From Escherichia phage KKP 3954, in sequence record OR067838.1: 64,000 nt of DNA; one strand, written 5' to 3'. This document shows positions 6,388-59,065 of the stretch, one piece after another (position 1 is the first letter of the stretch; every line of letters starts with the position of its first letter). The translations under genes were made by a program, and so were the position numbers. The notes under the pieces are model-generated. The model searched no databases and had not been told where the DNA came from. It was given only the letters and a program-made list of their open reading frames with translations.

Positions 6388-7305
6388 TTACTCGGTAACG
6401 TCCACACTAATGTTTGCCATTGTCAAAACAGTAAGTGCAGGAATATTGCTCGAATCCAAAACAGGTAATGCATTTTGGGGATTAAGTTTTTTGTATAAAG
6501 CATACAACCCAAAACCACGTAACAACTCTCCAGCGTGGAAGCCAAAGAAGACTCCGTTATCACTATCTGGTCTAGGAGCGGAACTCCAACAGCCATTCAT
6601 AACATGATTAGGACCAAGAACAATATAATTTTCCTGAATAAGTTCAAAACAGCGGTCTGCTACTATTTTAATGTTAGGAATTTCTGAATCATACCCAGCC
6701 ATCCCCATTATAGCACATCCTGCCATAAAGAGCGCAGACATGTGACTTGTAAAGTCATCTACAGGTGCTGCCACTTCTCCGTTGGGATAAAATATTGTTG
6801 GTGTTCTTCCTTCGTTGTTGTCTTGGAACCACTTTAGATAGTTGATCCAGTTTTTACAAACTGTTAAAAGTTTTTCAGGAACTTCTGCCCCTCGTTGTTT
6901 CAGTTCGTATACTGTATGACACGCACAGAAGAATGCTCGTGCTTCATAACCATCCCAAGCTTTATCGTTCCAATGATACATTGTGAACTCATTCTTGTTT
7001 CCGTATTTATGAGCATCCCAACGATCCCAAACATAAGCTTGTGCCATTGGTCCAGGCATCACAGGGGCAAACTTATTATAAAACCACATTTGTGAATCAT
7101 ATAAAAAGTCTATACTGTTGTTCATACGAACCCAATCAATATCTCTCCCTTTAAAACAATATAAGGATGGGTATTGATAACCTGGGTAAGGAATACCACG
7201 CCAACCGTCATATAAGGCTGTGTTAGGATCACTGATATTGGAAAATGGAATGATTCCTGGAGTATAATTCAAACTGTTAAGTTTGTAGTCCAGTATTGTA
7301 TACAA
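6388..7305 (-). CDS. tail-associated protein, glycoside-hydrolase-like
   Basis: 305 aa, Trp/Tyr-rich, resembles alpha/alpha-barrel glycosidase fold by composition only. Confidence 0.3.
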   Translation of the reverse strand: MYTILDYKLNSLNYTPGIIPFSNISDPNTALYDGWRGIPYPGYQYPSLYCFKGRDIDWVRMNNSIDFLYDSQMWFYNKFAPVMPGPMAQAYVWDRWDAHKYGNKNEFTMYHWNDKAWDGYEARAFFCACHTVYELKQRGAEVPEKLLTVCKNWINYLKWFQDNNEGRTPTIFYPNGEVAAPVDDFTSHMSALFMAGCAIMGMAGYDSEIPNIKIVADRCFELIQENYIVLGPNHVMNGCWSSAPRPDSDNGVFFGFHAGELLRGFGLYALYKKLNPQNALPVLDSSNIPALTVLTMANISVDVTE

Positions 7306-12399: not shown

Positions 12400-12537
12400 T
12401 GTAACTGTATATGTTTGATCAGGTATACTCTTCAGTTTTCAGATACCATGCAAAATAAGTAGAATGGTCCTCCAGATAAACTGCACTGTAGCCTGTATTA
12501 CTTGTAGACCTTGTTGTTTTAGAATAAGTTGTCACTA

Positions 12538-13239: not shown

Positions 13240-13365
13240 GATAACCTCGTAGTAATGATAATGCCAAAAGGAAGATGCAAGATCTTCCCATATTGATTAT
13301 TGTAACACATATAGAAACTTCGTGTCAAGGAAAACGAAAATACCCCGCCGAAGCGAGGTATTTTA

Positions 13366-14985: not shown

Positions 14986-15043
14986 ACGAAGATTACCTAA
15001 GTCTTCCCTACGTGCTGCTGCTTTAGCTTCGCGTTCAGCAGCT

Positions 15044-15355: not shown

Positions 15356-15375
15356 AGTATGTTCCTCGTGTTGGA

Positions 15376-16124: not shown

Positions 16125-16169
16125 ATTTTCCTCTCTAATGATAAAAAGGGCATTTCTGCCCTTTATTTA

Positions 16170-16649: not shown

Positions 16650-16661
16650 TATAGATCCTCT

Positions 16662-21973: not shown

Positions 21974-22117
21974 GGTTGCTGTTTTAACCAGGTTAACTTC
22001 ACGTATACACAGTGTCCAAGGTCAGAGCTAAACACTCCACCCAGAACCAGGTGTCCGAATTCCTGGCGAGAGTTAGATAAAGTAATTCCTTTAGCCATTT
22101 AATTTAATCTCCTAAGA

Positions 22118-34251: not shown

Positions 34252-34718
34252 GAATTAAAGTAACTAAAGCTTACGATGATAACCCGAAGTTTATCTCTTT
34301 GAATAAGAGTTATGGTGTCGAAAACGGCGATGAGTTCGAGGTTATCGATCTTTTTGAGGACCACGGTTATATTGTCAAAGCCCCAATCACAGAGCAGGCT
34401 ATTATCATCTTACGCACAGAGGCTGTTGAGGTAGGTTCTGATGAGCCTCAATATGACAGCCCATACATGACAGAGTGGATTGTGGCTGTAGATGTTGGAG
34501 GCAGGGTTTCTGTATTGAAAGCTCCTAATCTCCATCCTAGTTTTACAGAGAACGGTAAGACAGCTTTGGATTATGGGTTGCCAGAAGATGTTGAGAATAC
34601 ACCGCCAGGTATGTACCGTTGGATTTGCTCTTTCCATGAAGAGAAGGATTGGGAATCAGGGCTTGTTGATGATTGGCATTTTGAAGTGGAAAGTTCTTTT
34701 TTAATCATGCCAGCTTAA
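34248..34718 (+). CDS. hypothetical early protein
   Basis: 156-aa ORF. Confidence 0.3.
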   Translation: MRIKVTKAYDDNPKFISLNKSYGVENGDEFEVIDLFEDHGYIVKAPITEQAIIILRTEAVEVGSDEPQYDSPYMTEWIVAVDVGGRVSVLKAPNLHPSFTENGKTALDYGLPEDVENTPPGMYRWICSFHEEKDWESGLVDDWHFEVESSFLIMPA

Positions 34719-34728
34719 AGGAGGTTAT

Positions 34729-35073
34729 ATGAAAGTTTGGATAGATGATATGCGGAACCCAGCCGACTATGGACAGGAAGATGCAATTTGGTTTAAAACG
34801 TCACAAGAAGCTATGGCCTTTCTCAATGATCCTGCTAAACTGTATCGAAGAGTAACCGAGTGGTCTTTTGACAATGATTTAGGTATGGAGTCAGACCAAG
34901 ATGGGTATGATGTTTTCCTGCACCTGGAAGAACTTCTGGCGTTTGGTAAACCTTGCTTTGGTTCACCTACCATTTTCGTGCATACTTCTAATCCCGCCGC
35001 TGGGGATAAATTCATGCTTGCAAAAGAATCCATGCTGCGTTATGGTATTAAAATGATTCGTGTGCACTACTAA
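34729..35073 (+). CDS. hypothetical early protein
   Basis: 114-aa ORF. Confidence 0.3.
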   Translation: MKVWIDDMRNPADYGQEDAIWFKTSQEAMAFLNDPAKLYRRVTEWSFDNDLGMESDQDGYDVFLHLEELLAFGKPCFGSPTIFVHTSNPAAGDKFMLAKESMLRYGIKMIRVHY

Positions 35074-35232
35074 GGAGAGAACATGCATCATTTGGTTTGG
35101 TCGGAACAAGAAGAGGACGAAGGTTACTTTATCTACCGAGAAGAAGAGGATTGGCCCGACACAAGTAATGATCTTTTACTTCCAGACACTAGTTTTTTCG
35201 AGGATAACTTAAGAGAGGAGGATTAGGAAACA

Positions 35233-35589
35233 ATGAGTGGTATTGAAAACAACATTTGTTACCAACCTCTTACCTGGATGGGTGAGGGTCATTATGCGCA
35301 ACGTGTTATCGTCTGTGCTGCAAATAAGTATATTTTGAATAATGGTGAAGAGTTAATTATTCCTTGTGTTCGACATGCAAATCCTGTACTATATGCACAG
35401 TTAAACGTGTTGAAAGAAGCAGGTGTAATCAACAAAACTTTGTGCACACCAGATAATCAAGGCTTTATCGATCAGTATTACAATTGGTGGAGTCGTGCGG
35501 ATGCTTACATCATCGCGGAAAATGCTGACCAGATCGACCATGAGCGTAATGGTCACGACCATGAATTATTTAGCGAGGGATTATACTAA
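35233..35589 (+). CDS. hypothetical protein
   Basis: 118-aa ORF with RBS GGAGGA. Confidence 0.3.
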   Translation: MSGIENNICYQPLTWMGEGHYAQRVIVCAANKYILNNGEELIIPCVRHANPVLYAQLNVLKEAGVINKTLCTPDNQGFIDQYYNWWSRADAYIIAENADQIDHERNGHDHELFSEGLY

Positions 35590-36140
35590 TGTTTATTACA
35601 AGCGATTTGCATTTTATGCATAAACGTATTCGAGAGTTTGCTCCTGAATATCGTCCCTGGGAAGATATGGACCACATGACAGAAGCCTTGATCGAAGCAT
35701 GGAACAAATGTGCTACTACTCCTGGTGTTAAGATGTGGCATTTGGGCGACTTCTGTTTCGGAACTGAAGAAGATACCCGTAAAATTGCTTCCCGTCTCCA
35801 AGGAGATATCACCTACTGTGTTGGGAACCATGACTACAGCAAACACCGAGAAGTGCTTGCAGAGTATGGAGAAGTGGTGTATTATGACGAAGTGAAATAT
35901 CAGAAGCTGTTCTTCGTCTTAAGCCATTACCCTATGGCCTCCTGGAATAAACAAGGTCGTGGATCAATCATGCTACACGGGCATTCCCACGGATCTTTCC
36001 CTGATGAAGCTTATGGTAAAATGTTAGATGTGGGTTGGGATGCACACGGAAAAATCTTGCATTTTGATGAGATAATTTCTATGATGAGTAAACGAGATAT
36101 CGTGACTGTAGACCATCACAAAATAATCAAAGGAGAGTAA
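35589..36140 (+). CDS. calcineurin-like metallophosphoesterase
   Basis: Motifs SDLHF, GDFCFG, GNHD, GHSHG. Confidence 0.6.
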   Translation: MFITSDLHFMHKRIREFAPEYRPWEDMDHMTEALIEAWNKCATTPGVKMWHLGDFCFGTEEDTRKIASRLQGDITYCVGNHDYSKHREVLAEYGEVVYYDEVKYQKLFFVLSHYPMASWNKQGRGSIMLHGHSHGSFPDEAYGKMLDVGWDAHGKILHFDEIISMMSKRDIVTVDHHKIIKGE

Positions 36141-36141
36141 T

Positions 36142-37074
36142 GTGACTAAATTTAATTGCGACGATTTGGTTGAAAAAGGTTTAGTTCATAAGAAAACATA
36201 TAAAGAAGGAGAGTATTCTGGTCTATCTGTTCTTAAGTATAAGAACAAAGTTTTCTGGGATAACTTATGGAGCATTGATTCTCGTCTTCTAGAATGTCGC
36301 GGAATCGTTGTTGATGCTGATGACAATGTTGTTATTTGGCCTTTCACTAAGATTTTTAATCGTTTTGAGAATGGCACAGATCTACCATTGGATGAACTTG
36401 TAGATGTGGTTCGTAAAGTAAATGGTTTTATGGCCTCTGTAGGTGTATATAAAGGTCAACTTATTGTATCGACAACAGGAAGCCTTGAATCAGATTTTGC
36501 AAGTATTGCAAAGAATCGTATTGTTTCAGAGTGTGATGACATAGAACATTTCATCAAATGGACAGAGAGTGCAAAAGCAACTTTCCTTTTTGAAATCTGT
36601 GATCCTTCTGATCCGCATATTGTCGAAGAAGAACCAGGTGCATACTTAATTGGTGCCAGAATTCAAAATCCTGATGGGACAAGTTTTATGTTACCTGAAG
36701 GTGCTCTTGATGGAATTGCTTCTGTCACCAAATTTAAGCGTCCTGAAGTTCATCCAATGGTTAAGTTTTCAGATGTTGTTGAAATGTCTAAACATTGTAA
36801 ACACGAAGGGTTTATTGTTCGTGAAACAAACTGTCCGTTTAACTTACTTTTAAAGATTAAGTCACCATACTATCTTACTAAGAAGTTTCTTATGCGTGGT
36901 GGAGATAAGAAGTGGGATCTTATTTGGGATAATCCAAAAAATGCCAAACAAATTGTTGACGAAGAATATTACACTTTGTTAGAATGGATTCGAAATAATT
37001 TTACGAAGACTCAATGGGCTGCTTTAAATCAGCAAGAGCGACGTGAAGAAATCGAAAACTTCTTTGGAGGATAA
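36142..37074 (+). CDS. RNA ligase, T4 Rnl1-like
   Basis: LLECRGIVVD and motif I KVNG, EGFIVRE, LLLKIKSPYY parallel T4 RnlA blocks. Confidence 0.6.
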   Translation: MTKFNCDDLVEKGLVHKKTYKEGEYSGLSVLKYKNKVFWDNLWSIDSRLLECRGIVVDADDNVVIWPFTKIFNRFENGTDLPLDELVDVVRKVNGFMASVGVYKGQLIVSTTGSLESDFASIAKNRIVSECDDIEHFIKWTESAKATFLFEICDPSDPHIVEEEPGAYLIGARIQNPDGTSFMLPEGALDGIASVTKFKRPEVHPMVKFSDVVEMSKHCKHEGFIVRETNCPFNLLLKIKSPYYLTKKFLMRGGDKKWDLIWDNPKNAKQIVDEEYYTLLEWIRNNFTKTQWAALNQQERREEIENFFGG

Positions 37075-37479
37075 ATGAAACAACTTATCATTTTACGTGG
37101 TGTTTCAGGTGCTGGTAAATCTACAGTAGCAGAAATTATTTCTGAAGGTTATTGGCCTATCTGCGAGGCAGATCAATATCATTACACAGAAAGTGGTGTT
37201 TACGATTGGAAGCCAGAAAATGTAGGTAAAGCACACGCATGGTGTCAGAGTATTGTTCGTGATGCTATGGCGTCTAATCTTAACAAGATTATTGTTTCTA
37301 ACACTTCAACCACAGAGAAAGAACTTAAACCTTATCTAGCTCTTGCTGAAGAGTTTGGTTATCAAGTTATCTCTTTAGTTGTTGAAAATAGGCACGGTAA
37401 TGATTCAATTCACGAGGTTCCACAATATATCCGTGATCAGCAAGAGAAACGTCTTCGTGGTTCACTTAAACTTCAATAA
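37075..37479 (+). CDS. polynucleotide 5'-kinase (P-loop)
   Basis: Walker A GVSGAGKST, IVSNTS block like T4 Pnk kinase domain. Confidence 0.55.
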   Translation: MKQLIILRGVSGAGKSTVAEIISEGYWPICEADQYHYTESGVYDWKPENVGKAHAWCQSIVRDAMASNLNKIIVSNTSTTEKELKPYLALAEEFGYQVISLVVENRHGNDSIHEVPQYIRDQQEKRLRGSLKLQ

Positions 37480-37488
37480 GGAGAAATA

Positions 37489-37815
37489 ATGCAGATTTAT
37501 ACAGATGATCGTAAATATGAGACAATTTTAGATGAAGATACTGGACGAATTACCGTTCTCCGTCACGGTGAAGAGTGGCGTGATGAAACGGGAGACAATT
37601 ATATCTTGTCTCTGATTCATCTTATTGAACAAATGCGTGATGATTACGCTGAACTGCATTATGAAAATGAGGCGAATAAAGTAAAATTTGAAAATGAATT
37701 AGAAGAGAAAGAATCTGAAATGGTATATCTAAAAGAAGAGATCTCCCGTTTGGAGGAAGAGATTGATGCTCTTCAGGAAGAGATTTACGAACTCAACAGC
37801 GAACTGAATGCTTAA
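37489..37815 (+). CDS. coiled-coil protein
   Basis: 108 aa, Glu-rich heptad C-terminus. Confidence 0.3.
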   Translation: MQIYTDDRKYETILDEDTGRITVLRHGEEWRDETGDNYILSLIHLIEQMRDDYAELHYENEANKVKFENELEEKESEMVYLKEEISRLEEEIDALQEEIYELNSELNA

Positions 37816-37824
37816 GGATGAATT

Positions 37825-38013
37825 ATGAAAAAAGATATCGTTGTTGATTGGCTGACTTGTCCTTGTGGCAGTCATGAAATCTCTGTAAACACAGAAGGTG
37901 ATAAACATTATTTGTTCTATGGTGATAAAATCACTTGCCTTTCTTGCGGACGCATTGGTATTATAGAAACAGATGATTGCTGTGTTTTTGAATCTTGGGA
38001 TGAAGATGAATGA
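37825..38013 (+). CDS. zinc-ribbon protein
   Basis: CPCG and CLSCG pairs in 62 aa. Confidence 0.3.
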   Translation: MKKDIVVDWLTCPCGSHEISVNTEGDKHYLFYGDKITCLSCGRIGIIETDDCCVFESWDEDE

Positions 38014-38231
38014 GTACTGCATTTTATGTTCGTAGCGGAGACGAGGATTTTCTAGCTACTTTTGATGACGGTGATCTTGAAGATATGTATGAAGATATGC
38101 TTGACTATGCCAAAGGGCAAGGTTTCACAAGCATTGATTATATGTTGGCAACATCTACAACGTTACTCGACGCAGATTTGGATGAAGTGTGTAACAGATT
38201 GAAAATTTCAGTTTTTAAATGGGAGGACTAA
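38010..38231 (+). CDS. acidic small protein
   Basis: 73-aa Asp/Glu-rich ORF. Confidence 0.25.
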   Translation: MSTAFYVRSGDEDFLATFDDGDLEDMYEDMLDYAKGQGFTSIDYMLATSTTLLDADLDEVCNRLKISVFKWED

Positions 38232-39346
38232 TGCAACAAACAAATCAAACGCTGTATGGTAAAGATTCAAAAGGAAAACTTAAACAGTGGACAGTGTATA
38301 CAGATGGTGCAGTTGTTACTGTAGCTCATGGAAGGGTAGGTGGAAAAATCACAGAAAAATCTTATACAGCAGAAGCAAAAAACATTGGTCGTTCCAATGA
38401 AACAACACCGGAAGAACAAGCTGAACTTGAAGCTTTTGCCAAATGGACAAAACAGTTAAAGAATGGCTATTATAAAACAAAAGAAGAAGCTGAAAACCAT
38501 GTTCCTTCTACACCAATGAAATGCCAGGATTATAAAGATTATCCTGAAAGGGTTGTGTTCCCTGGTTATGCACAATACAAACTGAACGGGTTACGTTCTA
38601 TGATTAACATGAAAGGGGAGTGTTTATCAAAAGCTGGGGAAGTGTATAACCTGCCACCTCATTGGGAAGGTATTCCAAACTTTATTAGTGAAGTTGTTGG
38701 TCATCCTCTTGATGGTGAAGTGTTTGCTGGGTTAGGTGTCCTTAGTCTGCAACAAATTAACAGTGCCTGGAAGAAGCATAATGCAAATACACCTTTGCTG
38801 AATTATTACGTATACGATATTCCAGTTCCAGATCTACCGTTTGAAAAACGTGTTGATGTTCTGGCTGCTCTTAAGGCAGTAGTGGAAGATTATGGTCTTG
38901 ATGAGCTTATTTGTGTAGTTCATACAGAGTATATTGAAAACCAAGAACAGTTTGATGCTTTCTATGAAAAAGCTTTACTTGAAAAGGCTGAAGGTGTAGT
39001 ATATCGTAATGCTCGCGGAGTTTACGAATTTGATAAACGTTCTTATGACGTTATTAAACGTAAGCCTCGCCACACCCTTGAAGTTAAAGTAACAAATTCA
39101 AAAAGTGATAAAAATGGCGATGGAGTGTTGACAGGTGAGATGGAAAATGGTAAAGTAGTCGAATTCTTAATGCGTAAAGATGCTCATGAGACTATCAATT
39201 ATCGTAAAGCAGAGAATGCTTCTACCTTGATTAATCAGTTCGTTGAAATAGAGTATGAAGAATTTTCAGATGAAGGTATTCCAACAAAACCTGTTGGTGT
39301 TCGTATTCGAGAAATGATCCCAGGCACTTGGGAACCAGCAGAATAA
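38219..39346 (+). CDS. ATP-dependent DNA ligase
   Basis: Motif I KLNGLR, motif IV EGVVYR, downstream KRK. Confidence 0.55.
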   Translation: MGGLMQQTNQTLYGKDSKGKLKQWTVYTDGAVVTVAHGRVGGKITEKSYTAEAKNIGRSNETTPEEQAELEAFAKWTKQLKNGYYKTKEEAENHVPSTPMKCQDYKDYPERVVFPGYAQYKLNGLRSMINMKGECLSKAGEVYNLPPHWEGIPNFISEVVGHPLDGEVFAGLGVLSLQQINSAWKKHNANTPLLNYYVYDIPVPDLPFEKRVDVLAALKAVVEDYGLDELICVVHTEYIENQEQFDAFYEKALLEKAEGVVYRNARGVYEFDKRSYDVIKRKPRHTLEVKVTNSKSDKNGDGVLTGEMENGKVVEFLMRKDAHETINYRKAENASTLINQFVEIEYEEFSDEGIPTKPVGVRIREMIPGTWEPAE

Positions 39347-39355
39347 GGAGGAAAA

Positions 39356-39550
39356 ATGTTCTTAGCCATTCTAATCGTTTTCAGTGTGCTTTCTTTTTAT
39401 TGTATGAATGCTTCTGAAAACTTTCCTAAGAATTCAAAGAAAAGAACCGTATGTATTGCGATTGATTCATGTATGTCTGGAGTTGGGTATGCGGTAGTTT
39501 CTTGTTTCTTAGCTTATCATTGTGCAAAATACCTGGAGGCATTTTTATGA
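39356..39550 (+). CDS. small membrane protein
   Basis: 64 aa, hydrophobic. Confidence 0.25.
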   Translation: MFLAILIVFSVLSFYCMNASENFPKNSKKRTVCIAIDSCMSGVGYAVVSCFLAYHCAKYLEAFL

Positions 39551-39729
39551 TAATTTTAGCAACAATTCTTATGATGTTGATAGCCATTGCTATTGTAATT
39601 CTGGCATCTTTTCCGGCGGATAAATGGTATTTCAATATTCCACGTATGCTTGTTTTCGGTTTCGCAGGAATTTACATGGGTGAGACTGTAGTAAATATTA
39701 GCAACTTTCTAGAAAGCTATTTTAAATAA
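39547..39729 (+). CDS. small membrane protein
   Basis: ATG overlaps previous stop (ATGA); two hydrophobic helices. Confidence 0.3.
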   Translation: MIILATILMMLIAIAIVILASFPADKWYFNIPRMLVFGFAGIYMGETVVNISNFLESYFK

Positions 39730-39738
39730 GGAGTTATA

Positions 39739-40464
39739 ATGATCGAGAATTTTTTTAAAGATATTAAATTCGATACTGAATTTTTCAAAAATGCAGCAAA
39801 GCACGTGATTGACTGGAATGCCAAAGCACGAGGTGGTGAACAACCGGAATTCACTCAAGAGCTATTTATGTCCCAAATCGGGTTCGTTCGTGAAGAGCTT
39901 AAAGAGTATGAAACAGCCGCGAAAGTAAACGATCATGTAGAACTCTTGGATGCAGCAGCGGATATTTTTGTAGTATCAAGTTATCTGACTTACATGTTCT
40001 TTGGTGAAGAACATACGATGAATTTCTTGGACTATGCTGTAGGCGATGTTTTTACTCCAACTGTGTATACTGATTTTGATGCTTTGGAACAAACATTTAC
40101 AGAGCCAGTTCAAATGGCACTAATGGCTGCTGGTATTATGCGTATGTCTCGTGACACTCTAATCCGTTCAAAATATCCAGAAAAGAAAGTTATTAAAGAG
40201 GTATTGAAAAGTAATGATTCCAAGTATCCAACTAAACAACAGTTGCTGAAAACTTGGAAAACTTCAGATATCGATTCAGCCATTGCACAAGAATGCACTG
40301 CAATTGAAGAACGAAATGCCAATCGTCCAGAAGGAGCATACACTGGTGTTCATGCTGTTTATAATGAAAAACAGAAAGTGTATGTGTTCTTTGATGATAA
40401 AGGTAAGATCATGAAACCATCGACCTTTGTCAAACCTAATATTGCAGGTATTATTAATAAGTAA
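39739..40464 (+). CDS. MazG-like NTP pyrophosphohydrolase
   Basis: EELKEYETAAKVNDHVELLDAAADIFVV resembles the MazG EExxE...D motif. Confidence 0.35.
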   Translation: MIENFFKDIKFDTEFFKNAAKHVIDWNAKARGGEQPEFTQELFMSQIGFVREELKEYETAAKVNDHVELLDAAADIFVVSSYLTYMFFGEEHTMNFLDYAVGDVFTPTVYTDFDALEQTFTEPVQMALMAAGIMRMSRDTLIRSKYPEKKVIKEVLKSNDSKYPTKQQLLKTWKTSDIDSAIAQECTAIEERNANRPEGAYTGVHAVYNEKQKVYVFFDDKGKIMKPSTFVKPNIAGIINK

Positions 40465-40520
40465 TGTTGTAAGCCGCCCTTTATGGGCGGTAATGTGAGA
40501 TGTATTAAATAGGAGGAAAC

Positions 40521-41399
40521 ATGTTTGTAAAATCTTTTAAATCCGCTCTGCCTATGGTTGTTGGTGACAATGCTTCTGTAGCATCCCTTAACAGCATTAC
40601 AGATATTCCTCTGGAATTTGTAACAGCAGAAGGCTCCCAGTCACACACTATCGGTCTTGTTCGTTTCGAAGATGACTCTAAATTTGTAAAAGAGTTTTCA
40701 GATCTTGAACTGCTTAATGTAGGTCAATCTGTGAAGAAGGTAGATAAAAAGAAAGTTAAACGTATTCTGAATGAACGTCTAGAAGAAATGCGTCAGGACA
40801 TGGAGAGCGAAGGTAAAGAGTTTTATGTCGATAAAGAAGTAGTCAAAGCAATGAAGGAAGATATTGAATTTGCACTATTGCCTGAAACAGAACCTGAAGA
40901 TTTCTTTAACTATGTTGTCTTGGATAAAACTACGAATCTTCTTTATGTTCTTAATGGAAGTAAAAAGGTTGCAGAAGAGATTACTTCTTTCCTCCGTTCC
41001 GTTCTGGGGACTTTCCCTTCGGTAGGTTTTAGTGTGCACGAAGAAGCTATTGTAAAAGGTTTTGGTGAATTGCTGGAGAATCACGAAGCAGATCGTATTA
41101 CTCTCGGAAATTATATCAAAATGGAGGATAGCGAGGGCGTTGTTGTTTGGAGTAAAGAATCTCTATACGAGTCTAAAGCTGTCGAACTAAAAGAAGATGG
41201 TAAAGATGTGGTTGCAATTGGTCTTGAATATGACGGTGTTGTAGATTTTGTAGTGGATAAAGAGTTTAAACTTTCTAAACTACGTTTTCCGAAATATTTT
41301 GCAGACGAAGAAGGTAGTATTGAAGCTTCAGTTCTTCTGTGCTTCAATGAGATTCGAGGTCTGATGGAAGATTTAACCAAAGCAACAATCCTTAAATAA
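40521..41399 (+). CDS. RdgC-like recombination-associated protein
   Basis: LLYVLNGSKKVAEEITSFLRSVLGTFP parallels RdgC; about 300 aa, acidic. Confidence 0.4.
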   Translation: MFVKSFKSALPMVVGDNASVASLNSITDIPLEFVTAEGSQSHTIGLVRFEDDSKFVKEFSDLELLNVGQSVKKVDKKKVKRILNERLEEMRQDMESEGKEFYVDKEVVKAMKEDIEFALLPETEPEDFFNYVVLDKTTNLLYVLNGSKKVAEEITSFLRSVLGTFPSVGFSVHEEAIVKGFGELLENHEADRITLGNYIKMEDSEGVVVWSKESLYESKAVELKEDGKDVVAIGLEYDGVVDFVVDKEFKLSKLRFPKYFADEEGSIEASVLLCFNEIRGLMEDLTKATILK

Positions 41400-41403
41400 G
41401 TTC

Positions 41404-41432
41404 TTGACTTGCGGGATTAGTTATGATATTAT
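41404..41432 (+). promoter_or_regulatory. sigma70-like promoter
   Basis: TTGACT, 17-nt spacer, TATTAT. Confidence 0.45.
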
Positions 41433-41461
41433 GCCTACCTACTTAATGAGGTAGGCTTTTT
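41433..41461 (+). terminator. rho-independent terminator
   Basis: GCCTACCT/AGGTAGGC hairpin plus TTTTT. Confidence 0.45.
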
Positions 41462-41471
41462 AGGAGGCGTT

Positions 41472-41681
41472 ATGAAAAAGATTCTGACAGTCGTTCTTTT
41501 AGCTTTTAGTTTCACAGTAGCAGCAGGTCAAATTACTTTAATCTTGTCTGATTCTGAAGTTAATGGCAACACAAAATATTGCTACTATTCTAACGCTAAC
41601 CAAGATGAAGTTATAGCAATCCCGAAAAGTCGTCAATGTCCGTATACTAAAACATTCTCAACAGAGGATGACGATGAATAA
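41472..41681 (+). CDS. small secreted protein
   Basis: N-terminal signal-like MKKILTVVLLAFSFTVAAG. Confidence 0.3.
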   Translation: MKKILTVVLLAFSFTVAAGQITLILSDSEVNGNTKYCYYSNANQDEVIAIPKSRQCPYTKTFSTEDDDE

Positions 41682-42122
41682 TTAGGGGGAAATATTAGCG
41701 GTTATATTTTAATTAAACCTGAAGATCTTCATTTATATGTCAACGAAGAAACAATAGCTGCAATTGATTATGATCAGATCGCTTTCCAAGCAGCGTCTGC
41801 ATTAGAGAAAAGAACAATCATTGCGAAGCACATCCCTTCGGGTGCTCAAAAGGAATTTAAAAATAAGACAGAGTTTTGGGGTAAAAGCAAGACTAAAATT
41901 GGAGGTTGGCTAGGAGATACAAATGCAGAAAGAGCCTCCAAAAACAAACGTCCCTTCACAAAGGAAGAGTTCGAAATCATTGATAAGCAATACCCGCCAG
42001 AAGATATCGGACACACCTTCCAAGCAGCTAAAACAAAAGTCTTAGGTATTCTAAAACATCTACGTTTAGAAAAATATTGCGGAGTTATTGGCGTAGGAAA
42101 AACTTTCAGACACGCCTTCAAA

Positions 42123-42812
42123 ATGCCCGTAGAATATAAATCTGAACGGTTAGATATCAAACCACTTCAGCTTTCAGAAACCAAAGATTATCTTGTGGAA
42201 TTCCACAATGGTGATGTTGTTACTGTAATAGAGGCTGACGATGAGTTGGAGAAATATGGTTTCCAGGGTTATAAAGATTATAAAAGGACGGGTAAATTTT
42301 CTTATATCGTAGTGTCTATCGATAAAGATAGTTTACATACTCCTAGTATCCTTTTTAATTTCTACAAAGAAGATGGAGTCTTTAAAAACCCAGATATAAT
42401 TCTTATTGATGAATCTATTGGCGACATATGGATCGTAGATAAAGGTAAAAAGAAAGAAGTTAAAGGTTGGGGCAGTTACTGGTTAGCATATCAAATGCTA
42501 ATGGGAGATAAAACAGATAGTATCCGACCTTATCAAGATTTTGATATTAAGTTTGGAGATATTACTTGTTTTAATCTTCTTTCAGCTTGTAAAACTCAAG
42601 CAGAGCTTTTCCAAACAGTTAAAGATACTTACTACTCATGGTTCCCAGATGGTGTTAATTTTACTTCTTGGGATGGAGAAGAAGTCCATATGACAACAGA
42701 TGAATGGATAGAAACAATTTTCCAGTTGGTATACATGAAACGCTGGGATAATGACGATACAACATTTGAGAGTATGCTTCAGTCATACATCTCACAACAG
42801 GAGGCAGAGTGA
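42123..42812 (+). CDS. hypothetical protein; open frame extends upstream to 41682 without canonical start
   Basis: Same frame is stop-free for 377 codons from 41682; strong SD AGGGGGA at 41683-41689. Confidence 0.35.
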   Translation: MPVEYKSERLDIKPLQLSETKDYLVEFHNGDVVTVIEADDELEKYGFQGYKDYKRTGKFSYIVVSIDKDSLHTPSILFNFYKEDGVFKNPDIILIDESIGDIWIVDKGKKKEVKGWGSYWLAYQMLMGDKTDSIRPYQDFDIKFGDITCFNLLSACKTQAELFQTVKDTYYSWFPDGVNFTSWDGEEVHMTTDEWIETIFQLVYMKRWDNDDTTFESMLQSYISQQEAE

Positions 42813-43459
42813 GCAGATTAACAGAAGAGCAGAAAGCAGATATCCTTAGTATGAGTGCAGAGGGTATGTCTTCTCGCAATATTGCAGCAATTGTTTTAGG
42901 TAGTCCAACAAGAAAAAGCACAGTAAATGATTTCCTTGCACGTTTCGGTGCAAGTAAACAAGAGCCAGTTAAAAAGAAACAACCAGTTATTAAAATTATT
43001 GATGTTGAAACTGCACCAGAGATTGCATATACTTTCCGTCGATTCAAAGCCTTCATTTCTCCAGACCAGGTAATTCGTAGGGGTTATTTGTTATCTTACT
43101 CTTCTGCTGATTTGTATACAGGTGAAGTAGAAGGTAAGAACTTATCTTCTTATCCTCTTTTCGATATCGATCATACAGACGATTGGGAGCTTTGCCAAGA
43201 TCTTTGGAACCTTCTGAATGAGGCAGATGTAGTTGTGGCACACAACGGGTATAAGTTTGACCGTGCATACATTAACCAACGATTTGCATATCACGATATG
43301 GCTCCTCCTTCTAATTATGTAGTTGTTGATACATTGAAGGCAGCTAAGAAACAATTTGCACTTCCTTCCAACTCCCTTAAAGAAATGGGAGCATATTTCG
43401 AAACAGAAAGTGAAAAACTGGATAACGAGGGGTTCCCCTTTATGGAAAGCATGTTGTGA
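42809..43459 (+). CDS. DnaQ-like 3'-5' exonuclease, N-terminal part
   Basis: Exo I IDVETAP, Exo II AHNGYKFD; N-terminal HTH-like segment. Confidence 0.5.
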   Translation: MSRLTEEQKADILSMSAEGMSSRNIAAIVLGSPTRKSTVNDFLARFGASKQEPVKKKQPVIKIIDVETAPEIAYTFRRFKAFISPDQVIRRGYLLSYSSADLYTGEVEGKNLSSYPLFDIDHTDDWELCQDLWNLLNEADVVVAHNGYKFDRAYINQRFAYHDMAPPSNYVVVDTLKAAKKQFALPSNSLKEMGAYFETESEKLDNEGFPFMESML

Positions 43460-43769
43460 AGGTGATCGTGATGCTTTTGAACGTATGCAGATTTACAATG
43501 ATGGCGATGTTGTTTCACTCCGTGATTTGTATATGAAAATCCTTCCGTGGATTCCACAGCATCCTAACTTATCCGCTTATTACCCAGATGAGAAGGTCCG
43601 TTGTTCTCGTTGTGGCAGTGATCACGTTCACGTTGTTACTGGTAAACAATACCACACTGCGGTAAGTTCTTTCGATATCATTCGTTGTGAATCTTGCGGA
43701 GGTTTGTCACGTAGTAGAGCAAACACCAGATCCAAGGATAAACGAGCAGCAACTATCATCGGAATCTAA
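43356..43769 (+). CDS. DnaQ-like exonuclease, C-terminal part after frameshift
   Basis: Exo III YNDGD then Cys4 zinc ribbon; frames meet at GGGG/CCCC runs near 43420-43430. Confidence 0.45.
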   Translation: MHFLPTPLKKWEHISKQKVKNWITRGSPLWKACCEGDRDAFERMQIYNDGDVVSLRDLYMKILPWIPQHPNLSAYYPDEKVRCSRCGSDHVHVVTGKQYHTAVSSFDIIRCESCGGLSRSRANTRSKDKRAATIIGI

Positions 43770-43775
43770 TAATAA

Positions 43776-43798
43776 GGGAGCTTCTTGCTCCCTTTTTT
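43776..43798 (+). terminator. rho-independent terminator
   Basis: GGGAGC-TTCTT-GCTCCC plus TTTTTT. Confidence 0.6.
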
Positions 43799-43799
43799 A

Positions 43800-43828
43800 T
43801 TGACAAAAATTTGATATTAGTGTATACT
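43800..43828 (+). promoter_or_regulatory. consensus sigma70 promoter
   Basis: TTGACA, 17-nt spacer, TATACT. Confidence 0.55.
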
Positions 43829-43855
43829 CTGCTAACCACAATAAAAGGAGGAAAT

Positions 43856-44083
43856 ATGAGCATTACATTAACAGGTAACGAAATTTTCGAACTGTTTGAA
43901 ATGTTAGGTTTGAACTATACCATCGAGAAAGACCCAGATTTACTTGACGTTGAAATAACAATTCAAGAAGATACAGCAATCTACAATGACGATGGTGATG
44001 TTATCTATCAAGGTAGGGTAGCTTATTATACAGACTACCCAGAAGAAGGCGCAGTAGGAATTCAGGAGGAAAATTATGTCTAA
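43856..44083 (+). CDS. hypothetical protein
   Basis: ATG after GGAGGA RBS. Confidence 0.3.
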   Translation: MSITLTGNEIFELFEMLGLNYTIEKDPDLLDVEITIQEDTAIYNDDGDVIYQGRVAYYTDYPEEGAVGIQEENYV

Positions 44084-44471
44084 TGCTTTTGATAATCAGG
44101 TTGACGGTGATCACTACACAAAAATGGCAATGCAACCTATCGAATTAGCTTATTTGGTTGGTGGCACACCTTGTTTTTGCAAATTGGCAAAATACGCAAC
44201 ACGTATTAAAGGTGAGCGTCAGATTAACCTGGATAAAGCTATCCATTGTATTGAACTGGAAAGAACGCTCATGGAAAATAACACGTATATGGTTCGTGAA
44301 AATTATCCGTCTATGACTAGTGCAGCTAAACATGATCAAGCTATGCTTCTTATCGATTTCTTCACAAAAGATCCTTTAATCCGAGTAGCACTGAAACACA
44401 TGTATAACTCTTCTTATGTAGATGCAATCGAAGCTATTAAACAACTTAAGGAACGTATTAGTGGCGAGTAA
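44076..44471 (+). CDS. phage protein, DUF3310-like
   Basis: VDGDHY ... MQPIELAY ... AKYATRIKG pattern. Confidence 0.3.
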   Translation: MSNAFDNQVDGDHYTKMAMQPIELAYLVGGTPCFCKLAKYATRIKGERQINLDKAIHCIELERTLMENNTYMVRENYPSMTSAAKHDQAMLLIDFFTKDPLIRVALKHMYNSSYVDAIEAIKQLKERISGE

Positions 44472-44644
44472 TACTAAACAATATGGAGCAGGAGAAGTTT
44501 ATAAAATATTCAACCGCAAAGGTGATAAACTTTTACTAACTTTGACTATTCCAGAAACAATGTGCAAGGCGGGGTTAGACCGCCTTTTGTTTTTTAAACA
44601 TAATATCCCACCAGGGGAATATACAGCTAAAAAGGTGAGCAATA

Positions 44645-45220
44645 TTGGCAGGTGAACCAAAAATAATGTGGGGTGAAGGAACACCCTGGAAAACACAAGC
44701 TGAATTTTATACTTATCTTAGGGGATGTTTTAGAAAAGCATGGATGAGACACCCTAATAAAATTAAGGTTATCAATGCAAGGCGTTTTAAAGTTGATCGT
44801 GTAGATAAAGACGGCAATGTAATGATAGACAAGAAAACTGGAAAACCAAAACAAGTTTGGAATTGTGAGTGTGAAATATGTGGACATAGAGGAGGAATGA
44901 AAGACTTCCAAGTGGATCATATTCACGCAGCAAAACAACTTCAATGTTTTGATGATATTCCTCTTTTTGTTTTCCGTTTAATCTATGTGAAAGAAGAAGA
45001 TTTGCGCATGGTTTGTAAATTGTGCAACTCTATTCTTGCTTATGCAGACAAACAAGGTATATCTTTTGAAGAAGCGAAAGCTGAAAAAGAGGCGATAGCT
45101 TTGTGTAGAGCTAAGAAAGATAAAGCTTGGTTGAAGAAGCGTAAAATAGAACCTGAAAGCACAGTAGCAAAACGCCGTAAACAAATAGTCAAAATCCTAT
45201 TGCAGGAAATTGAAAGTTAG
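44645..45220 (+). CDS. HNH endonuclease
   Basis: CECEICGH, VDHIHA, CKLCN arrangement. Confidence 0.5.
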   Translation: MAGEPKIMWGEGTPWKTQAEFYTYLRGCFRKAWMRHPNKIKVINARRFKVDRVDKDGNVMIDKKTGKPKQVWNCECEICGHRGGMKDFQVDHIHAAKQLQCFDDIPLFVFRLIYVKEEDLRMVCKLCNSILAYADKQGISFEEAKAEKEAIALCRAKKDKAWLKKRKIEPESTVAKRRKQIVKILLQEIES

Positions 45221-45256
45221 TATAAGATAACTATACTAAAAGAGAGAGGAGGTTTT

Positions 45257-45865
45257 ATGCAGATAGTATGTGATTGGGATTTAGTTGTGGCTCCGTTAGA
45301 TGTTGCTTGGTTAGAATGGTTGAATAAGATTAGTGGCCTTGGTGTTAAAATCGACACATTCACAAAAAATGCAGATTATGATCTTACCAACTATTTTCCT
45401 GGTTTCAGGGAAGAGTTCAACATAGATCCTTACGGATTTCTGGATAATCCTCATCTCTACGATACAATGGGTTTTGTTCCAGGTATGCCAGATTTCTTAA
45501 AGTATGTTTCAAGGAAAGGTAGCAATCTTTTGATCGCGAGTGTGACAAAAGGTGGTCACTTAAGTTCTAAACATAAACATGTTTTAAGAACATTAGATAC
45601 GATTGATTTTAGCAAAGGATCTGGTAACGGCTTTTTTGCTACGAAAGAAAAATACTTATTACCTTGTGATATAGCAATAGATGACAGGGCTGATAACCTA
45701 TTATATTTTCCAGATGAAGTAGTTAAAATATATTTTAATACACCTTATAAAGATAACCATCTAGAAGAACTAAAGAAAAAACCAAATGTTGTGATCACAG
45801 GTTTAGAAGATCAGTGGCTAACATGTTTGGATGTTTTTAACACTTTGAACAATTTTAAAAACTAA
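45257..45865 (+). CDS. HAD-like hydrolase, possible 5'-deoxynucleotidase
   Basis: N-terminal CDWDLV and later IAIDDRADN; sits upstream of thyX-like. Confidence 0.3.
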   Translation: MQIVCDWDLVVAPLDVAWLEWLNKISGLGVKIDTFTKNADYDLTNYFPGFREEFNIDPYGFLDNPHLYDTMGFVPGMPDFLKYVSRKGSNLLIASVTKGGHLSSKHKHVLRTLDTIDFSKGSGNGFFATKEKYLLPCDIAIDDRADNLLYFPDEVVKIYFNTPYKDNHLEELKKKPNVVITGLEDQWLTCLDVFNTLNNFKN

Positions 45866-45875
45866 GGAGAAAAAA

Positions 45876-46289
45876 ATGACAAAACAGATTTCGGCTAGTA
45901 TTATTGCACATTCCATCACTGAAGACGGAAAAGAGATTGTAACTTTCGAACTTGAATATCCACGTATTATTCATTCAGAACTGATGACTCACCGCCTGTT
46001 CAGTCGTAACGCTGCTTCTAGCCGTGCTATACCTGTTAAAACACTGATCGAAATGGTGCGAAATCAGCCTGCTCGTCCTTATCGTTTTGGTGCTAACCAA
46101 CCTGGTATGCAGGACAAAGGTGTTGACCATGATGCTCTTATTGATGCAGGTTATACTGCTCAAGAGTGGTGGGATCTTGCCGCGCTTAGCGCAGCACGTT
46201 TTGCAGAAGAATTCTCTTTGGCAGGGAATACCACAAACAAGTTGCAAACCGTCTTCTGGAACCTTTCCAACGAATTAAAACAGTTCTGA
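45876..46289 (+). CDS. thyX: flavin-dependent thymidylate synthase ThyX-like, N-terminal part
   Basis: THRLFSRNAASSR fits ThyX (R)HR-x7-S-x-R with Thr for the first Arg. Confidence 0.5.
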   Translation: MTKQISASIIAHSITEDGKEIVTFELEYPRIIHSELMTHRLFSRNAASSRAIPVKTLIEMVRNQPARPYRFGANQPGMQDKGVDHDALIDAGYTAQEWWDLAALSAARFAEEFSLAGNTTNKLQTVFWNLSNELKQF

Positions 46290-51527: not shown

Positions 51528-51854
51528 ATGGGTATTGATATCGAATGGCGTATGTTACAGGGTGCACCATATGATAAATGGAAAGAAATATTTGGAGACG
51601 ACCCACAAGTTGAAGACCAGTTCGATGGGGACTTTAATTGGTTTCTCTGCGAAGGTTTGGGCTTGGAAAACATTTCCCCGTGGTACGATGCAGATCCTGA
51701 AGATTGTGTCTTCGGTGTCAAGCTGTGTAGCGGTTGTGGTGCTTGTGCCATAGACCTCACAAGCTTAAATAAAAAAGCAAATGAGATCTATTTTGAACTA
51801 CTTAATAAGTATAATATTGAAACTGAAACATTAGTGTCACAAAACGTCTGGTAA
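51528..51854 (+). CDS. hypothetical protein
   Basis: 108 aa with CSGCGAC motif. Confidence 0.3.
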   Translation: MGIDIEWRMLQGAPYDKWKEIFGDDPQVEDQFDGDFNWFLCEGLGLENISPWYDADPEDCVFGVKLCSGCGACAIDLTSLNKKANEIYFELLNKYNIETETLVSQNVW

Positions 51855-51863
51855 GGAGAACTG

Positions 51864-52349
51864 ATGCGCTATCTGGTAACAGGTGGTCTTGGTTTTATTG
51901 GGAGCGCCGTGGTGCGCTCTCTTTGTCAAGATCCTAATAACGAAGTTTTTATCATTGATAAAATGGGTTATGCAGCAGACATTGAGAATGTAGGTGATAT
52001 CACTCACGCTAAACTAAGCATGACAGATTTGGCAAACGAAGCCCAGGTCAAAAGTTTAGTAGTAGAGTGCAATCCCGATTTCATCATTCACTTAGCGGCA
52101 GAGAGCCATGTGGATAATTCTATCAAGAATCCACGAGCTTTCATCGACTCCAATATTATTGGTACATACAATTTATTGGAAGCTGCAAGGCTCCTCCCAA
52201 AGAATAAACTGAAGATGTTCATACACGTCTCCACAGACGAAGTGTATACGGTGATATGGCAGACTCTGGCGTTCCCTTTACCGAAGAGACAGCTTATGCC
52301 CCTTCAAGCCCGTACAGTGCGTCTAAGGCAGCATCTGACCATCTTGTGA
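51864..52349 (+). CDS. rmlB: dTDP-glucose 4,6-dehydratase, N-terminal fragment
   Basis: Rossmann GGLGFIGS; reads through HVSTDEVY then leaves frame. Confidence 0.75.
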   Translation: MRYLVTGGLGFIGSAVVRSLCQDPNNEVFIIDKMGYAADIENVGDITHAKLSMTDLANEAQVKSLVVECNPDFIIHLAAESHVDNSIKNPRAFIDSNIIGTYNLLEAARLLPKNKLKMFIHVSTDEVYTVIWQTLAFPLPKRQLMPLQARTVRLRQHLTIL

Positions 52350-52858
52350 AAGCTTGGCACCGTACCTACGATTTACCTGTTGTGATAACCAACTGCTCCA
52401 ATAACTTTGGACCCTATCAACATCCAGAAAAGCTGATCCCAAAAATCATCACAAGTATCTTGACGAATAAAGAGATTCCGGTGTATGGTAAAGGCGATCA
52501 GGTGCGAGACTGGCTTTTTGTTGAGGATCATGCGCGAGCTATTCTTCAAGTGGCAACAGGTGGAGAACCAGGTAAAACGTATAATGTGGGAACACGTAAT
52601 CCCAAAACCAATATGGAGATCATCTATATGGTTTGTGACTACATGGATGCTGTACATCCAGAAGCAGGAACCTACCCTTCTTCCAACTTGATAACTTTTG
52701 TTGAAGATCGTAAAGGGCATGACTTGCGTTATGAAATCAATCCTTCTAAGATAGAGTTTGAACTGGGTTGGAGTGCAAACTCTACATTTGAACAAGATCT
52801 CTACTCAACGATTGAATGGTACTTAAACAACCCTCAATGGTGGAGTGGGAAGATTTAA
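52256..52858 (+). CDS. rmlB: dTDP-glucose 4,6-dehydratase, C-terminal fragment
   Basis: Continues VYGDMADSG...[13 protein letters not shown] (YxxxK) in shifted frame. Confidence 0.75.
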
Positions 52859-52866
52859 GGAGGGCT

Positions 52867-53745
52867 ATGAAAGGTATTATTTTGGCGGGAGGAAGTGGAA
52901 CCCGCCTTCATCCGGTAACACGCAGTGTGAGCAAGCAATTGCTCCCTGTGTATGACAAACCCATGATCTACTACCCTTTATCGGTATTGATGTTGGCTGA
53001 CATTAAGGATATCTTAATCATTACCACACCAGGCGATCAGGAAGACTTTGAGTATCTTCTCGGAGATGGGTCTATGTTTGGGATAAAACTCACTTACGCA
53101 ATCCAATCCGAGCCACGAGGTCTTGCGGACGCTTTCATCATCGGTAAAGATTTTATCGGAGAAGACTCTGTTGCTCTTATTTTAGGTGACAACCTATTCT
53201 TCGGACAAAGCTTTGGTAAACTACTGATTAACGCCAGTGAGATGGTAGATGTTTGTGGCGGAGCTTGTATCTTCGGGTATTTGGTGAAAGATCCTGAACG
53301 ATTCGGTGTGGTTGAATTTGGGAGTAATCGTCAAGCTATTTCTATTGAAGAGAAACCTGAAAATCCTAAATCAGATTATGCTGTCACAGGTTTGTATTTC
53401 TATGATAACTCTGTTGTTCAACGTGCATTAGAAGTAACCCCTTCCGCGCGTGGAGAACTGGAGATCACAGATATCAATCGCAGCTACCTCGAAGACAGGA
53501 AGTTACAAGTGGAAGTTCTCGGACGAGGATTTACTTGGCTTGACACAGGAACACACGCCAGTCTGATGGAAGCTGGTCAATTCGTGCAGACTATTGAGAA
53601 CCGTCAAGGATTGAAGATTGCGTGCCTGGAAGAAATTGCTTTCAAAAAAGGGTGGATTTCTTTAGAGACTTTGTTGTATCATGGAAACTCACTGAAGAAA
53701 ACAGAATACGGGCAATACCTACTCAAATTAGCGGAGAGAAAATGA
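52867..53745 (+). CDS. rmlA: glucose-1-phosphate thymidylyltransferase
   Basis: [32 protein letters not shown], near-identical blocks to enterobacterial RfbA. Confidence 0.9.
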
Positions 53746-54308
53746 AAGTAGAAAAAACAAAAATTGAAGGTGCGGTAATTATCAAACCAGACGTTTATAA
53801 AGATGATCGTGGTTTCTTTTTAGAAACATATAATGAACAAAAATACGAAGATATCATTGGTAGACAAACTTTCGTTCAAGATAACATGTCTAAATCAAAC
53901 TTCGGTGTTTTGCGAGGAATGCACTTTCAAACAAATAATCCGCAAGGTAAGCTTGTTCGTTGTGTAAGTGGGGAAGTATTGGATTTCGCTGTAGACCTAC
54001 GTAAAGATAGTCCTACTTACGGTGCTTGGGACGGTGTTGTTCTTCGTGCACGACACCATACACAGTTCTGGCTTCCACCTGGTTTGGCACATGGTTTTAT
54101 AGTGCTGAGTATGGATGCTATCTTCGAATACAAATGCACAACTCCATACGACCCTTCCAGCGAACAAAGTTTACGTTGGGATGATCCTGATATAGGGATT
54201 GATTGGGGCTTCGATATGATTTTTGACGAAGATTTTAAACCTATCTTATCAACAAAAGATGCAATGGCTAAGTCTTTTCAACAGCTACGTAGCGAGGGTG
54301 TATGCTAA
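53742..54308 (+). CDS. rmlC: dTDP-4-dehydrorhamnose 3,5-epimerase
   Basis: ATG overlaps rmlA stop; RGMHFQ cupin motif. Confidence 0.8.
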
Positions 54309-55144
54309 CATATCTGGTATTGGGTGGTAATGGACAACTGGGACAAGCTTTACGTAAAGTGGCTCCTTCAAATGTGTCTTTAATTTATCCTAAAGAACGT
54401 GTAGATATTACAAATTTTGAAGCTGTGCGAAACGCTATTGTTGAAGATTATGTAGATGGTGTTATTAATTGCGCTGCTTATACGGCTGTAGATAAAGCAG
54501 AACATGATTTTGCTACTGCTTTGGCTGTTAATGCCTATGGCCCTGCAAATACTGCGGCAGTGTGCAGCAAACTTAAAATTGATTTTGTGCATATTTCTAC
54601 AGACTATATTTTTAATTATTCTCATCCTATTTTTGAAGATACTACACCTAACCCAATAAACAATTATGGGTATACGAAAGAACTTGGTGAAAAAATGGTG
54701 CGAGGAGTTAACCCAAATGCATATATTATTCGAACAGCCTCGGTATATAGCGAATTTGGAAATAACTTTCTAAAAACCATGTTGTCTCGCTATAATGATG
54801 GACAACGTGATTTTATTATTGTTGCTGATCAGTTCTCTTGTCCAACATATGCCCCAGATTTAGCAGAAGCTATTTTTGAAGTATTAAAAACAGGTTGGTC
54901 AAGATCTGTAAAGACTTACCATTTTGCAGGAAGCCATCTTATTTCTTGGGCGGAGTTTGCGGAAAAGATCTTGACACAGATGCCAGAACCTGTTAAGATA
55001 TCGGCGGTATCAGCTTCAACCTATAATGCTCCAGCAGCACGTCCGGTGAAGTCACAATTAGTAACCAGTCACTATCTTACAAAATCAGATTTAAATAAAG
55101 GTATTGAACGGTCTTTAGCAGTATTACTTAATAAGGAGAGGTAA
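54302..55144 (+). CDS. rmlD: dTDP-4-dehydrorhamnose reductase
   Basis: 280 aa, N-terminal GGNGQLG Rossmann motif, operon position. Confidence 0.75.
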   Translation: MLTYLVLGGNGQLGQALRKVAPSNVSLIYPKERVDITNFEAVRNAIVEDYVDGVINCAAYTAVDKAEHDFATALAVNAYGPANTAAVCSKLKIDFVHISTDYIFNYSHPIFEDTTPNPINNYGYTKELGEKMVRGVNPNAYIIRTASVYSEFGNNFLKTMLSRYNDGQRDFIIVADQFSCPTYAPDLAEAIFEVLKTGWSRSVKTYHFAGSHLISWAEFAEKILTQMPEPVKISAVSASTYNAPAARPVKSQLVTSHYLTKSDLNKGIERSLAVLLNKER

Positions 55145-58218: not shown

Positions 58219-58572
58219 ATGGTCTGGTGGCAAAAACCTATACTGTTGAAAAAGAAAAAACGTTGGTTTGGCAAAGATGTTTACGAAGTTAATATTTTTG
58301 GTGAACATAAACTAAACCACGATACTCCTGAAAACATGTTAGAAATATTTCTAAGAGATGACAAAATATCTCCTATGGATTACCAACTTTTAAAATTTTA
58401 TGATTCTTCTTTGGCTATTGATAAGTTTGTTGAAGATATTCTGTCTAGAAAAACAGATAAAAACACTTATCCTCTAGAGGCTGATCAAATAGGATTATTA
58501 AACGAGATTTCATCCTTTAAAGAGTTGGATAATATTACAAAAGAGGAGATTTTAGATGGCATTAGATTATGA
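58219..58572 (+). CDS. hypothetical protein; probably starts at ATG 58137 before a frameshift
   Basis: ORF from 58137 (RBS AGGAG) joins this frame at an A6 run near 58250. Confidence 0.3.
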   Translation: MVWWQKPILLKKKKRWFGKDVYEVNIFGEHKLNHDTPENMLEIFLRDDKISPMDYQLLKFYDSSLAIDKFVEDILSRKTDKNTYPLEADQIGLLNEISSFKELDNITKEEILDGIRL

Positions 58573-59065
58573 TCGCCCAACGAGCGATTATTATCCGACA
58601 CCGCAAAAAGCAATCAACAGTTTGTTTAGTGTTATAGATTTCAAAAATCTAAAGGAAGAAGGTTGGGTTTTTGCAGAACCTTGTAGAGGTGAAGCTGAAG
58701 CGATTTATCGCCATTTTCCTGAAGGTTCAGAATATTGTGAACTTGAAGAAGGTAAAGATTATTTTAGTCATGAATGGGAAAATCGTCCCGACATTATAAT
58801 CACAAATCCTCCATTCAAGTTAGCAATGGAGTTCTTGGAAAAGAGCTTAAAAGAGGCGGATGTTTGTATTTATCTTCTTCGGTTGGGCTTCTTGGAGTCA
58901 AAGAAACGACGAGAGTTCCATCAAAAGAATCCACCAACAAACCTTATAGTCCTTTCAGAACGGCCTTCGTTTGTTGCAGGTGGAACAGATAAGACAGCAT
59001 ACGCTTGGTATGTATACGACCCAAAGAATCGTTTGGGCCTCTCTCAACCATTTTATTTTGTTTAA
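58556..59065 (+). CDS. N6-adenine DNA methyltransferase, phage Dam-like
   Basis: DYYPTP and IITNPPF motifs in 169 aa. Confidence 0.55.
   Translation: MALDYDRPTSDYYPTPQKAINSLFSVIDFKNLKEEGWVFAEPCRGEAEAIYRHFPEGSEYCELEEGKDYFSHEWENRPDIIITNPPFKLAMEFLEKSLKEADVCIYLLRLGFLESKKRREFHQKNPPTNLIVLSERPSFVAGGTDKTAYAWYVYDPKNRLGLSQPFYFV

Follow-up and report, generated by a model that had tools for sequence, protein, structure and literature searches.

RmlB (dTDP-glucose 4,6-dehydratase) is represented by the NCBIfam profile TIGR01181, with a curated equivalog cut-off of 365.1 bits, and by the Salmonella enterica enzyme (PDB 1g1a/1keu). Two further described systems bear on the phage rmlB locus studied here. 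In nanopore assemblies, methylation induces strand-specific miscalls, which appear as A/G and C/T ambiguities at pairs of reverse-complement motifs and leave an assembly partly wrong (Lohde et al. 2024, PMC11610573; Liu et al. 2024, PMC11610603). Restriction-site avoidance is known from the depletion of EcoRI and EcoRV sites (Maffei et al. 2021, PMC8594841); the same study reports a high sensitivity of Phapecoctavirus phages to restriction and also remarks on phage glycosyltransferases.

The window, the stretch of 64,000 nucleotides analysed here, belongs to a Phapecoctavirus, an E. coli myovirus of the phAPEC8 type. Its identity to the phages vB_EcoM-Ro121c4YLVW, ukendt, nieznany and others is 98.3-98.5%. 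The best matches in the phage collection lie at 97.4-98.5%, none reaching 100%, and the E. coli genomes gave no full match either.

The split rmlB gene and its counterparts in relatives

We found that the rmlB gene of the window is 995 nt long, against 993 nt (330 aa) in relatives, and that the difference is a TA dinucleotide lying within a GTAC site. The features of the locus are as follows.

51864..52858, plus strand: rmlB, identified by the annotation of relatives and by the profile and PDB matches of the repaired protein
51864..52349, plus strand: N-terminal reading frame as written, 161 aa, made of 128 RmlB residues and 33 out-of-frame residues
52221..52224, plus strand: second damaged GTAC site in rmlB, reading ATAC (apparent V120I), with GTAC in 15/15 relatives
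52245..52246, plus strand: extra bases TA, by which the GTAC of relatives becomes GTATAC at 52244-52249
52256..52858, plus strand: C-terminal reading frame as written, 200 aa from the first ATG past the break, containing YSASK
52867-53745, plus strand: rmlA, intact (TIGR01207, 468 bits, above cut-off)
53742-54308, plus strand: rmlC, intact (TIGR01221, 225 bits, above cut-off)
54302-55144, plus strand: rmlD, intact (TIGR01214, 235 bits, above cut-off)

Read directly, positions 52240-52252 are AAGTGTATACGGT. The frame opening at 51864 runs to MFIHVSTDEVY, continues out of frame as TVIWQTLAF and stops at 52349, while the +2 frame carries the rest of RmlB up to 52858. RmlB as written is thus split after Tyr128, inside the STDEVYG motif, as an earlier note on this DNA had described. 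That note had also held that the break cuts the NAD-binding part from the catalytic YxxxK, and the Rossmann part and YSASK do lie in separate frames. Its proposal that removal of the TA restores STDEVYGD was borne out in silico: without 52245-52246, the gene encodes 330 aa, and the product reaches 428 bits with TIGR01181 over profile positions 1-319 of 321 and can be aligned over its full length with RmlB of Salmonella (PDB 1g1a; E=2e-111), including HxSTDEVYGD and YSASK. The motifs GGLGFIG, STDEVY|GD and YSASK are all present, but they are spread over two frames as written and fall into one polypeptide only after the TA deletion. With rmlA, rmlC and rmlD directly downstream, the repaired gene agrees with the S. 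enterica enzyme (1g1a/1keu) and TIGR01181 in its full-length match, its motifs and its place in an rmlB-A-C-D cluster; the gene as written differs in the split after Tyr128.

The comparison with related phages that the earlier note had called for gave a uniform result. The window reads GTGTATACGGT at the rmlB site, whereas about 45 GenBank relatives and more than 15 other contigs read GTGTACGGT. The rmlB region is 2 nt shorter in all 30 GenBank records among the matches listed, the alignment places the gap at GTG--TACGG, and 15/15 aligned relatives read GAAGTGTACGG. All relatives are annotated with one 993-nt rfbB/rmlB gene. A search for the TA-insertion allele in viral, genome and metagenome contig collections did not find it, and exact look-up of the 161-aa N-terminal and 200-aa C-terminal frameshift products in public records found neither.

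The gene itself is lost in some members of the genus. The relative MN850571.1 (17700-17800 of L033) has a clean rmlB-rmlA deletion, with rmlC directly after the upstream 108-aa gene, and the Logan contig SRR36243278_2491 (18109-19101 of L030) encodes RmlB Q228* (CAA to TAA at codon 228). Some lineages thus seem able to do without the rml pathway, and because of this natural loss a true inactivation is not implausible in principle.

Two classes of error in the window assembly

We listed all indels of the window against its closest relative. Nine of the 22 events fall at GTAC (binomial p=1e-14). Besides the rmlB insertion, they include the following.

7299..7300: GTAC to GTATAC, breaking a minus-strand gene for a structural (tail fibre-like) protein of 958 aa
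12424: extra T within a GTAC site
16706: extra A adjoining GTAC
17748: extra G adjoining GGTACC, breaking the 457-aa tail sheath gene
22004..22005: GTAC to GTATAC, breaking the minus-strand gene for the head decoration protein (132 aa); 15/15 relatives read CACGTACACA
46227..46228: GTAC to GAATAC, breaking ThyX (332 aa)

Substitutions follow the same motif. They affect 13.5% of positions within GTAC and 1.7% elsewhere, an 8-fold difference (Fisher p=9e-17), and of the 52 GTAC sites in the closest relative, 29 read differently in the window. GTAC occurs 30 times in the window and 58 times in the closest relative, the sole one of the 16 four-base palindromes to differ. When a site is counted as family-conserved if 90% or more of the relatives have GTAC there, the window has lost 18/34 and the relatives 8/443 (p=1e-17). 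The losses private to the window at these conserved sites are mostly to ATAC (9) and GTAT (2). More generally, most GTAC substitutions are GTAC to ATAC or GTAC to GTAT, which is one change viewed from either strand (the reverse-complement pair RTAC/GTAY). Some GTAC-free variants of the window are common to relatives and are therefore true polymorphisms. In coding sequence, all but one of the GTAC substitutions are transitions, and their 10 synonymous to 7 non-synonymous changes, compared with 805:161 elsewhere, do not tell errors from positive selection.

Multi-base garbling is seen near dense GTAC clusters, and also where GAAGTG has become GGGGTA. In the intergenic region 31980-32180, between divergent gene blocks, the window is garbled at seven GTAC sites, with a GT to TG swap and changes in neighbouring bases, and this garbling is not explained by point mutation. 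Relatives carry 8-9 GTAC sites in about 200 bp here (GTACTGTAC, GTACGTAC, AGTACGGAGTACAGTACTTGAGTACAGAGTAC), arranged around AT-rich sequence, and this cluster could be a regulatory or origin-like element; in the rest of the genome, GTAC is avoided three- to fourfold.

A second set of indels consists of single-base insertions in short runs of 3-6 nt.

15052 (15052/15057): frameshift in a 624-662-aa tail protein
43435: frameshift in a DnaQ-like exonuclease (319 aa)
58249: frameshift in a 144-aa protein
16675, 28472, 45870 and 59548: further homopolymer insertions of one base

The homopolymer indels of the window are insertions only, with no case in the opposite direction. Insertion-only errors in short homopolymers are not the commonest nanopore profile, and this counts against reading these changes as an artefact of that platform. 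Compared with the closest relative, eight genes of the window are frameshifted. Every frameshift site is uninterrupted, with GTAC, in 15-25 further relatives, and a viable phage cannot carry these eight frameshifts, which include the tail sheath and structural genes. The window assembly thus has two error classes, namely an added base in short homopolymers, and substitutions or insertions of 1-2 nt at GTAC. The earlier note was right that the TA is not a homopolymer indel, but the contrast that it drew with the other frame breaks does not hold, as the GTAC class breaks other genes as well. It had missed that the TA lies inside GTAC and that GTAC is damaged systematically across the window.

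A second assembly of the same phage

Exact look-up of window proteins in public assemblies led to three Logan contigs from the run SRR24296944, which cover parts of the window.

Window 4365-16679: contig L050
Window 34632-46225: contig L035, ending exactly at the ThyX site 46227
Window 51687-53762: contig L016

Over about 26 kb, these contigs are 99.6-99.97% identical to the window and have its private natural SNPs in common with it; judged by their sequences, the contigs and the window are the same phage. Differences between the two assemblies are confined to 13 GTAC sites and three homopolymer bases present only in the window. At the 13 sites, the window reads GTAC or GTATAC, and the contigs read GTAT or ATAC. 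GTAC is absent from the SRR24296944 contigs altogether, always being replaced by GTAT or ATAC, so that 11/11 conserved sites are lost. The insertions at 15052/15057, 43435 and 45870 are missing from the contigs, in which the exonuclease (319 aa) and the 662-aa gene have full-length calls.

At the rmlB site, L016 reads GACGGGGTATACGG, a sequence of wild-type length, and the RmlB call in this contig is 330 aa long. The contig is garbled here as well (GGGGTATACGG, giving STDGVYG), and so it shows the wild-type length and not the wild-type sequence. At 7299, L050 reads TTGTATAATC, again of wild-type length, and the 958-aa gene is intact. A look-up of the 22004 site for the SRR24296944 assembly returned matches from other relatives only, and a literature search found no paper mentioning this run. 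Among five contig ends, three lie at GTAC or within about 20 nt of it, and two lie at homopolymers, one of them (L050) 28 nt from GTAC. Contig breaks at homopolymers and GTAC are an indirect hint of a nanopore platform.

If two assemblies of one phage differ nowhere but at homopolymers and a single motif, at least one of them misrepresents the DNA, and the disagreement must arise at the level of reads or consensus. The changes show the features of an error: they are concentrated in one motif, they form a transition pair, and independent processing gives a different result only at these places. We consider it very likely that the TA is absent from the phage DNA and is a consensus error at GTAC, rmlB being most likely an intact 330-aa gene that reads GTGTACGGT.

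The error could arise as follows. GTAC in this DNA preparation would be base-modified on both strands, most likely by a GTAC-specific methyltransferase belonging to a restriction-modification system of the propagation host. Such a host enzyme would fit the genus-wide avoidance of GTAC and the high sensitivity to restriction (PMC8594841). A modification-naive basecaller, which we infer to be of the nanopore type, would then misread GTAC as GTAT (C to T) on either strand, so that the motif would appear as GTAT in plus-strand reads and as ATAC in minus-strand reads. From such a pile-up, the consensus might become GTAC, ATAC, GTAT or ATAT, roughly at random, and an alignment with a 2-nt offset (GTAT-- over --ATAC) would yield GTATAC. 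The sequence GAAGTGTATACGG of the window is exactly GAAGTGTAT merged with ATACGG. If the two strands are read as GTAT and ATAC, a k-mer assembly without GTAC is expected, as seen in the SRR24296944 contigs.

This pattern resembles the reported nanopore methylation errors (Lohde et al. 2024, PMC11610573; Liu et al. 2024, PMC11610603) in being bound to a short motif that forms a reverse-complement pair (RACG/CGTY there, RTAC/GTAY here). As in those reports, only some sites are wrong, and reprocessing changes just those bases (PMC11610573, PMC11610603). The present case differs in that the motif is the palindrome GTAC, the genome is that of a phage, insertions of 1-2 nt shift the frame, and the platform and strand bias are presumed from the pattern (compare PMC11610573, PMC11610603).

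The rmlB frameshift is thus almost certainly no real feature but one case of a GTAC-bound class of artefact, and the dTDP-rhamnose pathway of the phage is probably intact. As to biology, the pattern implies no more than a probable GTAC-specific modification of the DNA in the phage preparation, most likely made by the host. The earlier note had left three possibilities for the split gene, and we retain mis-sequencing: inactivation is at odds with the wild-type length in the second assembly, and phase variation with a tract of (TA)2 found in no relative.

Other possible origins of the TA insertion

A real +2 frameshift, in which a TA duplication inactivated rmlB and left the dTDP-rhamnose pathway as a pseudogene remnant, is unlikely. 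The step from TA to TATA is plausible as slippage, and rmlB is dispensable in some relatives, namely MN850571.1, which lacks rmlB and rmlA, and the SRR36243278 contig with the stop at codon 228. Against this, the second assembly has the wild-type length with a 330-aa RmlB, and the allele is in no other collection that we searched. In addition, the identical change from GTAC to GTATAC disrupts the genes for the head decoration protein and for the essential 958-aa structural protein, and the insertion in the 958-aa gene is also missing from the second assembly.

The misreading of GTAC might instead stem from a sequence-specific modification made by the phage itself, which we regard as quite improbable. 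Candidates would be the annotated methyltransferases, or four glycosyltransferases fed by the dTDP-sugar of the rml pathway.

Window 58556-59062, plus strand; NC_052661.1 58550-59233 and 142148-142942: DNA methyltransferases by annotation (three in phage ukendt)
NC_052661.1 145545-148689 (ukendt), outside the window: four adjacent glycosyltransferase genes, near primase/helicase and DNA polymerase genes

The three putative methyltransferases have strong matches to PHROGs 799, 757 and 5172, and none has a Pfam or NCBIfam match at E<=0.001. The glycosyltransferases and rmlBACD are a putative dTDP-sugar glycosylation machinery. If the mark were made by the phage, the GTAC sites of Phapecoctavirus would bear an undescribed modification.

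We give very little weight to the idea that the GTAC changes, the TA included, are real mutations selected by GTAC-cutting restriction enzymes. The genus does show signs of such pressure. By a Markov expectation for the window and the relatives L005-L010, the observed/expected ratio of GTAC is 0.30, lower than for any other of the 16 palindromes of four bases, so that GTAC is the most avoided of them in the family. Polymorphism of GTAC among relatives is above background as well, with 4-15 of about 45 sites differing per pair at 1.1-1.9% divergence. Avoidance and turnover together suggest a long-term pressure from GTAC-specific restriction, resembling in depletion and fast site turnover the EcoRI/EcoRV case (Maffei et al. 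2021, PMC8594841); a literature search found no paper linking Phapecoctavirus with GTAC. Several variants of the window are common to relatives, and the 10:7 ratio and near-exclusive transitions of the coding GTAC substitutions also fit selection. However, the further halving of GTAC in the window differs from the avoidance described in PMC8594841: it is not evolutionary, as it vanishes or changes form in the second assembly. A true loss cannot be GTAC in only one of two assemblies of one phage. The private losses of the window at conserved sites (18/34) are far above those of any relative, and frameshifts in the sheath and structural genes would kill the phage. Moreover, 7/8 clustered intergenic GTAC sites are garbled together, with the GT to TG swap and changed neighbouring bases.

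Enzymes of the CviQI/Csp6I type cut G^TAC and leave a 5'-TA overhang, and fill-in followed by blunt religation turns the site into GTATAC. That the TA is a scar of this kind is hardly credible. The insertions at 7299, 22004 and 52245 are exactly the predicted 2-nt duplication, giving the same product as the fill-in frameshift known as a cloning artefact, and a DNA ligase is among the genes of the phage. The mechanism does not account for the remaining insertions linked to GTAC (AA at 46227 and single bases at 12424, 16706 and 17748). Nor is the change reproduced between the assemblies, as two of the three insertions (7299 and 52245) are missing from the second, and a phage with such scars in its structural genes would not survive.

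A programmed ribosomal frameshift or a phase-variable switch is as good as negligible: the second frame lies in the -1 frame of the first, so that a -1 slip could in principle join both, but a slippery heptamer was looked for at GTGTATACGG and none was found, the slip would insert a residue into the invariant STDEVYG, the repeat tract is (TA)2 only, and the site is split in no relative (about 45 GenBank records and more than 15 contigs).

On the preferred reading of a consensus error at modified GTAC, no fewer than eight frameshifts and about a dozen GTAC-tied amino-acid changes in the genome record would be spurious, and so would part of the near-absence of GTAC in the window. Until data from amplified DNA have been used to polish this genome, its gene calls, its count of pseudogenes and its restriction-site statistics would then be unreliable. 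The same pattern would mark the phage preparation as fully GTAC-modified, which fits the genus-wide avoidance and points to GTAC-specific restriction-modification in the hosts.

We also noted a 131-aa protein at 44076-44471 that stops two codons before the end of its 133-aa homologue in the closest relative (after RISGE). As the 131-aa form is identical in about 21 other contigs, it represents natural variation rather than an error.
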